12,911 nucleotides of DNA from Vulcanimicrobiota bacterium (GTDB taxonomy: Bacteria > Vulcanimicrobiota > Vulcanimicrobiia > Vulcanimicrobiales > Vulcanimicrobiaceae), in contig PKZK01000196.1 of assembly GCA_003133025.1 (NCBI GenBank), positions 11,276 to 24,186 of the forward strand, in the 5' to 3' direction. The translations under genes were made by a program, and so were the position numbers. Within the stretch, counting starts at the first letter, position 1. Each line of letters starts with the position of its first letter. The notes under the pieces were generated by a model. The model was not told the origin of the DNA. It saw only the letters and a program-made list of their open reading frames with translations, and did not search any database. Of this stretch, positions 1-3,952 are shown piece after piece.

Positions 1-77
1 ATGGGATGCGCGCTCTGGGCGAGCGTCGGCGCGCTTGCGAACGCCAGGAGCAACGAACAGGCGAAGAGCCTCTTCAC
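1..77 (-). CDS. Secreted protein, N-terminal part only (runs off the left edge)
   Basis: Manual translation of the reverse complement from GTG at 77 gives MKRLFACSLLLAFASAPTLAQSAHP..., a typical Sec signal peptide (KR, hydrophobic core, TLA cleavage site). GGAG (CTCC at 89-92) lies upstream. Not in the ORF track. Confidence 0.75.
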   Translation of the reverse strand, partial: MKRLFACSLLLAFASAPTLAQSAHP

Positions 78-154: not shown

Positions 155-170
155 CGTAAGGCGCCTTACC
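155..170. promoter_or_regulatory. Putative Crp/Fnr-family operator CGTAA-N6-TTACC upstream of crp
   Basis: Perfect 14-bp palindrome GTAAGGCGCCTTAC (156-169) with CRP-type 5-6-5 geometry, centred 42.5 nt upstream of ATG 205. A second copy lies at 1452-1469. Confidence 0.7.
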
Positions 171-192
171 GCACCGCCGGACCGGCCTCGGG

Positions 193-198
193 CATGAT
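193..198 (+). promoter_or_regulatory. -10-like hexamer CATGAT of a probable leaderless crp promoter
   Basis: CATGAT-gcacgt-ATG: hexamer ends 6 nt before ATG 205, no SD sequence; same layout as the redoxin gene. Confidence 0.5.
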
Positions 199-204
199 GC
201 ACGT

Positions 205-957
205 ATGGAATCGGAGATCGGCGGCCGGGCACCCGGCGGGCAGGCTTACGCGGGAGGCCCGCAAACGGACAGTTTCATGAACGACGGGCCTGAGCCGGGC
301 GAGTCGAACAAGGTCTGGTATCTCAAACAGAACCGCTTATTCGAAGACGTGCCCGAGGACGAGGTCGAGCAGAACGAAGGCCTCTTCACCATGAAGACCT
401 TCGCGCGCAAAGCCTTCATCTTCGACGAGTCCGACCCGTCGCGAACGGTCTACATGGTCAAGCGCGGCGCCGTGCGCCTGGCCCGGCTCACCGAAGACGG
501 CAAGGAAGTCACCGTGGCCGTGCTCGGCCGCGGCGACCTCTTCGGGGAAGAATCGATCTTCAGCGACCGGCCGCGCAGCACGTTTGCGGTGGCGCTCGAC
601 GACACGCTGATCTGCATGGCCCGCGCCGAGGACCTCTTCGCGCTGCTCGAATCGCAACCGAAAGTCGCTCTCAACGTCGCCAAGGTGATGAGCGAACGGC
701 TCGTCGAGTTGCAATCCACGGTCGAAGATCTGGCGTACGCACGCTTGAGCGAACGTCTGATCAATCTCTTCAACCGGCTCGCGATCGAACACGGCCGGCC
801 CGTAGAGGGCGGTGTGGAGATTACGATCCGGCTCACGCACGCCGACCTCGCCTCGCTCGTAGGCAGCACGCGCGAGACGGTCTCGCTCGAACTGGCCCGC
901 CTGATGCGCAGCGGCCGCTTGCGCCAGCGCGGCCACGCGGTGATCGTTCCGGCCTAG
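205..957 (+). CDS. Crp/Fnr family transcriptional regulator
   Basis: cNMP-binding barrel (VYMVKRGAVRL...GKEVTVAVLGRGDLFGEE...PRSTFAVA) and Crp HTH (LTHADLASLVGSTRETVS). Alternative start ATG 277 is possible. Confidence 0.95.
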   Translation: MESEIGGRAPGGQAYAGGPQTDSFMNDGPEPGESNKVWYLKQNRLFEDVPEDEVEQNEGLFTMKTFARKAFIFDESDPSRTVYMVKRGAVRLARLTEDGKEVTVAVLGRGDLFGEESIFSDRPRSTFAVALDDTLICMARAEDLFALLESQPKVALNVAKVMSERLVELQSTVEDLAYARLSERLINLFNRLAIEHGRPVEGGVEITIRLTHADLASLVGSTRETVSLELARLMRSGRLRQRGHAVIVPA

Positions 958-1418
958 GAACGTTCGGCGACGAGCGCCCGGACGGTGCGCTCGAGCTCGG
1001 CGTCGTTGCCCTCGCCGACGTACGTGGCGCGCAGCTTTCCATGGCGATCGAAGACGAGTTGCGTGGGCCAGGCGTCGACGCCGTATGCCTTCCAGATGGC
1101 GAAGTCGTTGTCGATCACCACGGGCCAGGTGATGTTCTGTTCGTGCAAGGCCGCACGCACGTTGGCGCCGTCGCGTTCGTAGGGCGTCTCGGGCGCGTGA
1201 ACGCCCACGATCGTGAGATCGGCCTCGGGGATCGCCGCTCGAAGCCGGCGCAGTTCCGGCGCGACGTGCTTGCAGTTGATGCAACCGAACGTGAAGACGT
1301 CGACGACGGCGACCCGGCCGGCGGTCGCCGGTGCGTGCGTGGCGTTGAGCCAGCCCGCGGTCGAGGAGATGACCGGCGCCAGCGTGGTCGCCGCGGCCAG
1401 CAATAAAGCGTGCAACAT
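954..1418 (-). CDS. Exported thioredoxin-fold redoxin (TlpA/DipZ C-terminal-like)
   Basis: N-terminal hydrophobic signal; DVFTFGCINC (CxxC); IVGVHAPE; WKAYGVDAWPT cis-Pro loop; GEG ending typical of DipZ-like redoxin domains. Confidence 0.9.
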   Translation of the reverse strand: MLHALLLAAATTLAPVISSTAGWLNATHAPATAGRVAVVDVFTFGCINCKHVAPELRRLRAAIPEADLTIVGVHAPETPYERDGANVRAALHEQNITWPVVIDNDFAIWKAYGVDAWPTQLVFDRHGKLRATYVGEGNDAELERTVRALVAERS

Positions 1419-1424
1419 ACGGCG

Positions 1425-1430
1425 ATCATA
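1425..1430 (-). promoter_or_regulatory. -10 hexamer TATGAT of a probable leaderless redoxin promoter
   Basis: Minus strand reads TATGAT-cgccgt-ATG(1418); 5/6 match to TATAAT; no SD sequence. Confidence 0.6.
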
Positions 1431-1451
1431 AACGAATCGAGGCGGCCCCGC

Positions 1452-1469
1452 CCGTAAGCCGCATTACGG
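1452..1469. promoter_or_regulatory. Putative Crp/Fnr-family operator CCGTAA-N6-TTACGG upstream of the redoxin gene
   Basis: Perfect 6-bp inverted repeat with 6-nt spacer (CCGTAA GCCGCA TTACGG), centred at 1460.5, i.e. 42.5 nt upstream of ATG 1418. Confidence 0.72.
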
Positions 1470-2692: not shown

Positions 2693-3952
2693 TTGCATAG
2701 TCGTCGGGACTTACCACGAACGGCACGCCTCGATCTCGCGGTCGGGGCCCTTGCATTCTCCCTGGCGGCCGTTTTGTCTGCGAGCCGGCCGCTGCCCGCG
2801 CAAGCTTCGAGCACCGGGTTGCTCACCCGTCCTCTGAAATCGTCGATGGGCATTACCGTCCTGTATTCGTTTGCCGGCCAGCCCGATGGGTCGACGCCGT
2901 ATTCCGGCGTAACGTTGGATAAGAAAGGCGACATATTCGGGACGACGTTCGCGGGCGGTCAGAATTCGGTCGGCACCGTCTTCGAATTGACCCGCGCGGG
3001 ATCGGGATATTCAGAGCGGCTGGTTCATAGTTTTACCGGGACCGACGGAAGCAGCCCCGTCGCCAACCCGCTGATCGCAAGCGACGGACGCATCTACGTC
3101 ACCAGCATCGCGGGCGGACAGTACGGCGCTGGAACGGCCATCGAATTGGCGCCGTCCGGCGGACAGTATTCCGAGATGACGGCATATTCGTTCGGCAGCG
3201 GCTCCGACGGTGCTTCGCCCAATTCCGGTTTTCTGCAAGTGGGCTCGACCCTTTACGCGACGACCGCCTCAGGCGGGAAGTACGGATATGGGGCGATCGT
3301 CGCGATGGACACGACAAATTTTGCCGAGAGCGACGTCTACGATTTCAAAGACGGCAGCGACGGCGCGTTTCCGCTCTCGGGTCTGATCCCGGATTCGAGC
3401 GGCGCCTTGTACGGAACGACGGTCGGCGGCGGATCTGCAGGCAAGGGGACCGTGTACAAGTTCGTTCCCGCAAAGGGCGGAGGCGCGGAGACCGTGCTCT
3501 GGAGCTTCCAAGGCTCGAGCGACGGCACCGGCCCGAACGGCGGGGTTGTGATCGACTCGAGCGGCGATATCTACGGCACCACGCCGACGGGCGGGAACAG
3601 CAATAGCGGCGTGGTCTTCGAACTCAAGCCCGGCAAGGGCGGCTACCAAGAGACCATCCTGCACGCGTTCGCGGGCGGTGCGGACGGTGCCCAGCCCGTC
3701 GCCGGGCTCACCTTGAGCGGCAAGCTCTTGTACGGCGCCACCTCTTCGGGAAGCGGGAGCCTCTGCGTCGGTTGCGGCACGCTCTTTCGAATGAAAACTG
3801 CCGGCACGGGTTACGAAGTTTTGCACACGTTCCAAGGTGCCGAAGGAGCTAACCCGCTCGGTAATCTCTACGTCACGGGCTCGTCGATCTACGGCACCAC
3901 GTCTACCGGCGGGGCGAATAATGTGGGTGTCGTCTTCAAGTTCGAGATCTAG
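2693..3952 (+). CDS. Secreted tandem-repeat (GloVer / choice-of-anchor type) beta-propeller protein
   Basis: TTG start with GGAG 7 nt upstream; signal peptide ending AQA; seven roughly 55-aa repeats of consensus (E)TVLxSFxGxxDGxxPxxGLxxxxxGxLYGTTxxGGxxxxGxVF(E/K)L. Confidence 0.9.
   Translation: MHSRRDLPRTARLDLAVGALAFSLAAVLSASRPLPAQASSTGLLTRPLKSSMGITVLYSFAGQPDGSTPYSGVTLDKKGDIFGTTFAGGQNSVGTVFELTRAGSGYSERLVHSFTGTDGSSPVANPLIASDGRIYVTSIAGGQYGAGTAIELAPSGGQYSEMTAYSFGSGSDGASPNSGFLQVGSTLYATTASGGKYGYGAIVAMDTTNFAESDVYDFKDGSDGAFPLSGLIPDSSGALYGTTVGGGSAGKGTVYKFVPAKGGGAETVLWSFQGSSDGTGPNGGVVIDSSGDIYGTTPTGGNSNSGVVFELKPGKGGYQETILHAFAGGADGAQPVAGLTLSGKLLYGATSSGSGSLCVGCGTLFRMKTAGTGYEVLHTFQGAEGANPLGNLYVTGSSIYGTTSTGGANNVGVVFKFEI

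Follow-up and report, generated by a model that had tools for sequence, protein, structure and literature searches.

A Crp-type regulator of Vulcanimicrobiaceae and its probable GTAAG-N4-CTTAC operator: a predicted control system for envelope methionine repair

The DNA stretch analysed here ("the window": 12,911 nucleotides (nt) of contig PKZK01000196.1, assembly GCA_003133025.1, Vulcanimicrobiaceae) carries a gene for a Crp/Fnr-family regulator, named Crp below, and, converging on it, a gene for a redoxin, both preceded by the same palindromic operator and a -10 box. We consider it probable that Crp (205-957) is an autoactivating, presumably cAMP-independent class II activator of an envelope methionine-sulfoxide defence, which acts through GTAAG-N4-CTTAC and has traded places with a SigK-like sigma factor. 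This reading starts from observed features: the sequence and spacing of the site, its conservation, its co-occurrence with crp, and the identity of the genes downstream.

Operator, promoters and their conservation

The features of the crp-redoxin module were as follows.

155-170, plus strand: operator before crp, CGTAAGGCGCCTTACC, core GTAAG-N4-CTTAC at 156-169, centre at 162.5; predicted Crp site, conserved before orthologues.
193-198, plus strand: -10 box CATGAT of crp, read from the sequence, 22 nt after the operator and 6 nt before the ATG at 205.
205-957, plus strand: Crp/Fnr-family regulator of 250 amino acids from the ATG at 205 (Pfam, Foldseek, structure model); alternative start, ATG 277; a single cysteine, Cys137.
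871-891, plus strand: recognition helix RETVSLE, from alignments.
954-957, both strands: overlapping stop codons (CTAG) of the convergent crp and redoxin genes, leaving no space for a terminator.
954-1418, minus strand: redoxin of 154 amino acids (PF08534, PF00578); closest solved relatives, the thioredoxin domains of SOQ1, DipZ and NHLRC2.
1272-1283, minus strand: CxxC active site C46-I-N-C49 (CINC), from the translation and an alignment with SOQ1.
1425-1430, minus strand: -10 box TATGAT of the redoxin gene, read from the sequence, 6 nt before the ATG at 1418; geometry kept in loci L164, L165, L166 and L183.
1453-1468, minus strand: operator before the redoxin gene, CGTAATGCGGCTTACG read from 1468 to 1453, core at 1454-1467, one departure from GTAAG-N4-CTTAC, 22 nt from the -10 box.

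With +1 set at the A of the ATG, both operator centres fall at -42.5. The geometry given for both genes in the preliminary description (operator, 22 nt, -10 box, 6 nt, ATG) was found in the sequence as described, and all its coordinates were right except the end of the redoxin site, which is 1468 and not 1469. Its remarks that the window has no further GTAA-N6-TTAC (true even with one mismatch permitted), that the genes are convergent and that neither ATG has a Shine-Dalgarno sequence (none was visible) were also correct. The C at the first position of the crp -10 box was shared by the closest relatives (CATGAT in L164 and L166, CATACT in L167-L171). The bare palindrome was not enriched, because shuffles and a reversed control reached similar counts: two matches in the window (shuffle mean 0.63, at least two in 27 of 200 shuffles) and 7 exact matches in the genome (9 for the reversed control). 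It is position and conservation, not count, that lift the observation above chance. The possibility that the two operators also serve the divergent neighbours was rejected, since at both sites the other side lacks a -10 box at 22-23 nt.

Conservation was assessed at 80 loci from named genomes, 58 with the Crp family and 22 with more distant Crp proteins; the named relatives were nearly all labelled Vulcanimicrobiota, Eremiobacterota or WPS-2, and the hosts of the family were mostly uncultured soil and peat bacteria. A locus was scored when a palindrome with at most two mismatches was followed by YAnnnT at 22-23 nt, a filter that partly imposes the -10 letters and the GTAA/TTAC arms. Operator and -10 box were present upstream of 31 of the 58 family crp loci vs. 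1 of the 22 more distant ones. Core positions 5 and 10, unforced by the filter, were invariably G and C in the 31 promoters, which refines the motif to GTAAG-N4-CTTAC. The spacer to the -10 box was 22 nt in 16 and 23 nt in 15, and in 25 of 30 promoters the operator centre and the start codon were 41.5-42.5 nt apart. In none of the 31 promoters did a -35 candidate, likewise left free by the filter, match at more than 3 of 6 positions. This is the class II activator layout (GT-N10-AC centred near -41.5 and overlapping a poor -35), with +1 at its presumed place. An in-frame ATG or GTG, also not imposed by the filter, followed 5-9 nt past the -10 box in 29 of the 31 family promoters; only 28 of 773 crudely called genes of the window's genome had TAnnnT 6-7 nt before the start.

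The palindrome was therefore conserved at orthologous crp loci (31 of 58), as the preliminary description had suggested checking, and comparative evidence backs two of its proposals: that Crp probably regulates itself, the operator standing at the class II position of its own promoter across the family, and that crp and the redoxin gene probably share one operator at that position. Its variant operator is real as a motif, refined here to GTAAG-N4-CTTAC, with a core that falls within the SdrP and NtcA consensus sequences. The proposed leaderless starts are probable in view of the 29 of 31 promoters, with 205 or 277 possible for crp in view of L164 and L166 (see below). Three of the family loci that did not pass the filter (L119, L123, L128) had a perfect palindrome and no -10 box at the required spacing. 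Perfect GTAA-N6-TTAC sites without a -10 box at 22-23 nt also preceded distant Crp genes in Calditrichota and Gemmatimonadota (L154:1620, L161:3918), which may reflect chance or a related specificity.

The link between motif and gene was then counted over 201 genomes of the class, 46 of which carry the Crp family and 155 do not, with the composite pattern GTAA-N6-TTAC-N22/23-YAnnnT and its reverse as control. Crp-positive genomes had 120 composite hits vs. 25 control hits, the others 77 vs. 173, and at least two composite hits were found in 33 of 46 vs. 19 of 155. Without the unpublished genomes G018, G020 and G194 the counts (composite/control) were 116/23 and 75/171; G036, G059, G073 and G165, also flagged as unpublished, stayed among the Crp-negative genomes, and none of the four had a hit. 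Seven Crp-positive genomes had no strict hit: G167, G152 and G003 showed sites with one or two mismatches on inspection, and no site was found in the fetched stretch of G052 and G097. In a phylum-wide sample the Crp family occurred in 14 of 121 genomes, from two families only. The 22 sites of G023 were not accepted as evidence of a large regulon. One spacer is common to 15 of them, the 10 of these that were fetched have identical flanks, and no -10 box stands at 22-23 nt. Because of the shared spacer and flanks these sites are regarded as a repeat, of at least 10 and probably 15 near-identical copies with a perfect operator-like palindrome (L032-L035, L041-L046).

The twin arrangement was followed in 25 metagenome loci, two of them identical in sequence to the window. 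Four loci of about 91% identity (L164, L165, L166, L183) retained the convergent redoxin gene with its own operator, -10 box and ATG 6 nt on, and the crp promoter was kept in both of those that include the DNA upstream of crp; two genes lie between crp and the redoxin gene in L166. In more distant relatives the usual order was crp and then the redoxin gene, in the same orientation and under a single operator, so that convergence appears to be a local form of a regulatory link that is itself conserved. The N-terminus of the redoxin was short and hydrophobic, with no earlier start in its frame, and we infer its probable export from the longer signal peptides of its orthologues.

The start of crp was examined in the same relatives, two of which have short leader open reading frames (ORFs) homologous to window 205-279:

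L164:2421-2495, short leader ORF.
L166:2436-2495, short leader ORF.

In these two loci (about 91% identity) the leaderless ATG opens an out-of-frame ORF of 24 or 19 codons and not crp, and the TGA of this ORF overlaps the GTG of crp at the place equivalent to ATG 277, which suggests a putative translational coupling of the two. The equivalent stretch is in frame in the window and adds 24 residues predicted to be disordered, as are residues 1-32 of Crp counted from ATG 205. Five loci at about 70% identity had a short leader, with a GAGGA/GAGAA-type sequence before the ATG in four. On account of the out-of-frame ORF and these leaders, either 205 or 277 is possible as the start.

The Crp protein and its putative signal

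Crp has the CRP/FNR superfamily architecture, an N-terminal cyclic-nucleotide-type beta-barrel (PF00027, 75 bits) and a C-terminal Crp helix-turn-helix (PF13545, 45 bits), and its best Foldseek matches were GlxR (E 2e-19, TM 0.76) and CRP of Mycobacterium, both cAMP-binding. No NCBIfam family reached its cut-off: the best was NtcA (84.7 vs. 245 bits), and the others included PRK11753 (73 vs. 266), PRK13918, which we take to be the SdrP-type model (58 vs. 274), and LdrP (50 vs. 300). Identity with NtcA was rejected on this score and on the helix, RETVSLE and not R-V-T-x-T-R. Identity with FNR was rejected because the N-terminal cysteine cluster for the Fe-S centre is missing and only Cys137 is present, presumably equivalent to FNR Cys122.

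Residue conservation was computed over 177 family sequences. The recognition helix retains the CRP-like RETVS noted earlier, including R223 and E224 (R180 and E181 of CRP), but not the Arg of CRP RETVGR: the R185 column holds L, V or A in the family (Leu228 in the window protein) and is followed by a Glu conserved at 97%. Given the DNA contacts of CRP, the loss of R185 would plausibly account for a GTAA rather than a GTGA half-site. In the nucleotide pocket, the L73 position was Glu in 93% (E116 in the window protein), the T127 position Ala, Met or Leu (Ala in 70%, L169 in the window protein) and the S128 position variable (Q170). The features of a cAMP receptor (T127/S128, L73, R185, TGTGA half-site) were thus missing from Crp; the SdrP/DdrI/LdrP equivalog scores were not reached, and the family does have the cAMP-independent pocket pattern (Glu at L73, Ala at T127).

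Cys137, the sole cysteine of the window protein, was conserved at 98%, and in one well-supported clade a thioredoxin/glutaredoxin-like domain is fused to the N-terminus of Crp, with weak Pfam matches below cut-off; for these two reasons a redox input is favoured. The fused forms include L054:9265-10272, L055:4860-5846, L056:4593-5603 and L124-L133, with CPFS, CAFS or CxxC-type motifs. Four checked fused-Crp loci stood behind an operator-led gene, and several fused genes lay in operons behind Met-rich secreted proteins. Three sequences from entries titled Limnocylindrales/Limnocylindria or Armatimonadota (L095, L102, L111) nested among Vulcanimicrobiota Crp sequences, by transfer or through mislabelled bins.

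Predicted target genes, the sigma factor of Crp-negative relatives and alternative readings

A weight matrix trained solely on crp promoters of other genomes was run over the window's genome. Its first five hits preceded a Met-rich secreted protein, the redoxin, a cytochrome b561-molybdoenzyme pair, crp and msrB (scores 24.7-18.6, next hit 14.8; wrong-spacing controls peaked at 17.0-19.8). The Met-rich protein (C152), with a signal peptide judged by eye, contains 13% Met vs. a genome mean of 1.3%; the cytochrome-molybdoenzyme pair (C229) starts 6 nt after the -10 box, and MsrB (C18) has an N-terminal export-type extension. The compact two-gene regulon first proposed was not supported, since the same promoter stands before msrB, the msrQP-like pair and the Met-rich protein gene. 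An exact GTAA-N6-TTAC with CG flanks and a poor -10 box (GTTAAT) before a glycosyltransferase operon (L081, G000:C63:6576-6589) may mark a weak further member.

The fetched family loci, chosen around crp or around sites so that target tallies are not genome-wide frequencies, contained 126 distinct composite sites. Behind 90 of them a gene was called; these genes encode 38 Crp proteins, 10 redoxins, some 14 secreted Met-rich proteins that fall into several unrelated clusters, 2 MsrB, 1 MsrA, 2 cytochrome b pairs, 1 AhpC-like protein, 4 glucose dehydrogenases, 2 aquaporins and assorted others. The 36 sites without a called gene include chance matches and locus ends. In L047:14963-19526 and L050:5921-13934 an operator-less Crp paralogue lies beside an operator-led cluster for glucose dehydrogenase, glucosidase, GMC oxidoreductase, debranching enzyme and aquaporin.

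Orthologues of two targets were compared between Crp-positive and Crp-negative genomes, using the best hit in 30 of 34 matching genomes for msrB and in 26 of 30 for the redoxin (four weak or partial hits omitted). All 6 Crp-positive genomes, and none of the 24 Crp-negative ones, had operator and -10 box 41-78 nt upstream of msrB. For the redoxin gene they were present in 7 of 7 Crp-positive genomes (three directly, three via crp, one via a Met-rich gene) and in 0 of 19 Crp-negative ones. The motif [AC]ATCC-N15-17-CGT, whose counts are descriptive only because it was noticed in the same sequences, preceded Crp-negative msrB in 21 of 24 cases (19 of 22 without G018 and G036), often about 500 nt up and, among those listed, ahead of msrA in five loci. 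It preceded the Crp-negative redoxin gene in 13 clear and 2 doubtful cases of 19, and was seen in 1 of 13 Crp-positive loci, 710 nt distant. A genome-wide count of CATCC was discarded as a test of the exchange, being noisy and high in all 201 genomes, and the gene-anchored comparison was used instead.

The -35 element of SigK promoters reads CCATCC, and dipZ is, we assume, a SigK target. Crp-negative relatives carry a SigK-like sigma factor and an anti-sigma factor (103 bits vs. a cut-off of 226 and 75 vs. 100 against the respective models), in one case directly upstream of the redoxin orthologue. In a tree built from each genome's best hit, the ten sequences closest to this sigma factor, one of them from the unpublished G018, formed a branch (support 88/82, not starred) confined to Crp-negative genomes, and 8 of the 10 had TCATCC-N16/17-CGTW on their own promoter. 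The best sigma hits of Crp-positive genomes fell outside this branch, and one (G004) had a similar motif. Since the same targets appear sigma-driven in Crp-negative relatives, it is likely, judging from the promoter sequences, that one regulator replaced the other.

The mechanism can be outlined as follows. A Crp dimer would bind GTAAG-N4-CTTAC and recruit the housekeeping polymerase from the class II position; activation and not repression is expected, as the site occupies the place of the -35 element and no good TTGACA is present there. The crp and redoxin transcripts would be leaderless, and Crp would act on its own promoter in a positive feedback loop. The predicted target set comprises the redoxin, exported MsrB, the MsrQP-like pair, Met-rich secreted proteins and, in some relatives, MsrA: the Met-rich proteins may soak up oxidant, the Msr enzymes may restore them, and the DipZ-like redoxin may supply electrons to MsrB. 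cAMP is most likely not the signal; Crp would probably respond to an oxidant or redox change, perceived through Cys137 or a partner, and this is the weakest step of the scheme. In Crp-negative relatives the same targets would be run by a SigK/RskA-like extracytoplasmic function (ECF) sigma factor. A more far-reaching version is put forward tentatively, as possible rather than expected: that a lineage-specific Crp subfamily took over the entire regulon for methionine repair and oxidant scavenging in the envelope from an ECF sigma factor and its anti-sigma factor, that every target promoter was rewritten from CATCC-N16-CGTW to GTAAG-N4-CTTAC with a housekeeping -10 box, and that the oxidant is sensed without a cyclic nucleotide, via the conserved Cys or, in one clade, the fused thioredoxin-like domain. 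On this version, no earlier Crp-type regulator of a defence by Msr enzymes and Met-rich peptides would precede it.

Several findings weigh against Crp as the activator of a methionine-repair regulon. The genomes are kin, so that the class-wide counts are not independent trials and no probability is attached to them. Twenty-seven of the 58 family loci had no operator of their own; three of these have less than 130 nt upstream, and many others are paralogues inside operons, in separate tree branches. The fifth matrix hit, msrB (18.6), was within the range of the best wrong-spacing controls and therefore needs the support of its orthologues. MsrP was the best model for the molybdoenzyme subunit, with 102 and 92 bits vs. 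a cut-off of 207 in two orthologues, one of which is 66% identical to the copy in the window's genome. In some cases the gene behind an operator has no link to methionine (glucose dehydrogenase, GMC oxidoreductase, aquaporin). Genome G044, 97% complete, has three composite sites and no Crp orthologue was found in it. Ten RNA runs contained small shares of matching sequence; the four placed on the DNA were short contigs, mostly of relatives, X1 and X2 gave identical pieces, and none spanned the promoters. Two of the G044 sites match those of Crp-positive G188, of the same genus, as after a recent loss or an assembly gap.

The same Crp and sites might instead be switched by cAMP or cGMP within a general stress or stationary-phase programme that includes methionine repair. 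Phosphoribose contacts of the pocket are kept (E72 97%, R82 99%, S/T83 91%, R123 79%), the genome encodes two nucleotide-cyclase domains, the best folds are the cAMP-binding GlxR and CRP of Mycobacterium, and operators precede genes for glucose dehydrogenase, glucosidase, GMC oxidoreductase and aquaporin in some relatives. Such a switch is nevertheless unlikely: the adenine contacts T127/S128 are not kept, L73 is Glu as in the cAMP-independent DdrI, pocket conservation was no guide to cAMP binding in Gardnerella CRP, the top sequence hit (PMC11445507), and each of the five best targets in the window's genome is a redox or methionine gene. A copper- or metal-stress response, with Met-rich secreted proteins that bind copper, would fit the weak, sub-cut-off CopM/DUF305 match of C152, the His/Met-rich composition of several targets, and a SCO1 gene and a heavy-metal ATPase with a CsoR-like gene near fused-Crp loci; it is quite improbable given core targets that consist of MsrB, MsrA, an MsrP-like enzyme and thioredoxin folds, the lack of a copper exporter among the best operator targets of the window's genome, and Met-rich targets that are mostly short and without a Pfam match. 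That another factor binds the palindrome, or that Crp represses by blocking the -35 region, is very hard to credit: Crp binding is a prediction, G044 retains its sites, and the site overlaps the -35 position, but GT-N10-AC spacing is the signature of the CRP family (PMC8465061), the site tracks crp over the 201 genomes and sits on its promoter, a -35 that matches at 3 of 6 positions at best would leave little to repress, and the ECF16 (SigF/BcrS) promoter GTAAC-N17-CGAA fitted 0 of 31 sites, with NrsF (PF06532) not found in the 80%-complete genome.

Neighbouring parts of the window were also surveyed. ORFs 1517-1894 and 2077-2550 are lipoprotein-like and 2693-3952 encodes a repeat-rich secreted protein, with no Pfam match at E 0.001; ORF 1517-1894 stays beside the redoxin gene in L183. 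A long G+C-rich inverted repeat was seen by eye at 2568-2610, intergenic after ORF 2077-2550. Positions 1-77 (minus strand, continuing in L001) belong to a divergent secreted peptidase-like gene with a GTG start at 77 and GGAGA upstream, in tandem with a paralogue and not under the operator; its GGPG and GESYG motifs are, we presume, typical of S10 carboxypeptidases.

Known systems and significance

SdrP (TTHA1359) of Thermus thermophilus, with the consensus AWTGTRA-N6-TYACAWT (PMC8465061), resembles Crp in its CRP/FNR fold, class II activation, oxidative-stress role and lack of a cAMP cofactor (predicted on the Crp side), and its consensus admits the GTAA-N6-TTAC core. Unlike it, the Crp site lacks the AWT flanks and has an invariant inner G/C, the helix is RETVSLE vs. 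RETVTK, and the targets differ. NtcA of cyanobacteria, with the box GTA-N8-TAC (PMC11850224), shares that core and the class II position and gave the best NCBIfam score, but has Val and Arg where the Crp helix has Glu224 and Leu228, and its nitrogen regulon and 2-oxoglutarate signal were not seen for Crp. E. coli CRP, GlxR and CRP of Mycobacterium share the fold, R180/E181 and the pocket residues E72/R82/S83, and differ in the half-site (GTGA, not GTAA), in the R185, T127, S128 and L73 equivalents, replaced in Crp, and in overall sequence (about 30% identity). The family pocket (Glu at L73, Ala/Met/Leu at T127) follows the pattern of cAMP-independent DdrI, with Glu66 and Ala112 (PMC11253593).

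In gene content the closest systems were SigF/NrsF-MrpX-YedY1Z1 of Azospira (PMC4436054) and BcrS/AbcS-BcrXQP of Brucella (PMC8315932), both ECF16-driven and hypochlorite-responsive, small regulons with a secreted Met-rich peptide and a cytochrome-molybdenum methionine sulfoxide reductase pair, which the predicted target set resembles. Unlike them, the present system has a Crp protein as its putative regulator, includes MsrB and a DipZ-like redoxin, and has a putative inducer. SigK-RskA of actinobacteria (PMC7509140) resembles the sigma/anti-sigma pair of the Crp-negative relatives, and the redoxin resembles DipZ, but the sigma factor reached 103 vs. 226 bits and the targets in the window's lineage carry the Crp operator instead.

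The operator motif strings were not found in a literature search that fell short of most subscription journals, predicted-regulon databases and supplements. Within that literature no Crp/Fnr protein was found linked to msrPQ, msrB or Met-rich peptides, nor one described for this phylum, and the available part of PMC9751292 makes no mention of Crp. All the parts are of known kinds; what is new is their combination and the apparent swap of regulators.

If the proposed role is correct, oxidative envelope repair would have a regulator, an operator and a list of targets that can be tested, in a phylum whose gene regulation has hardly been studied. The operator, together with a helix lacking R185, would serve as a natural example of how proteins of the CRP family come to prefer GTAA to GTGA. 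The Met-rich peptide and Msr systems compared above use ECF sigma factors, and the replacement of a sigma factor by Crp at orthologous promoters within one family would be a clean case of regulon rewiring.

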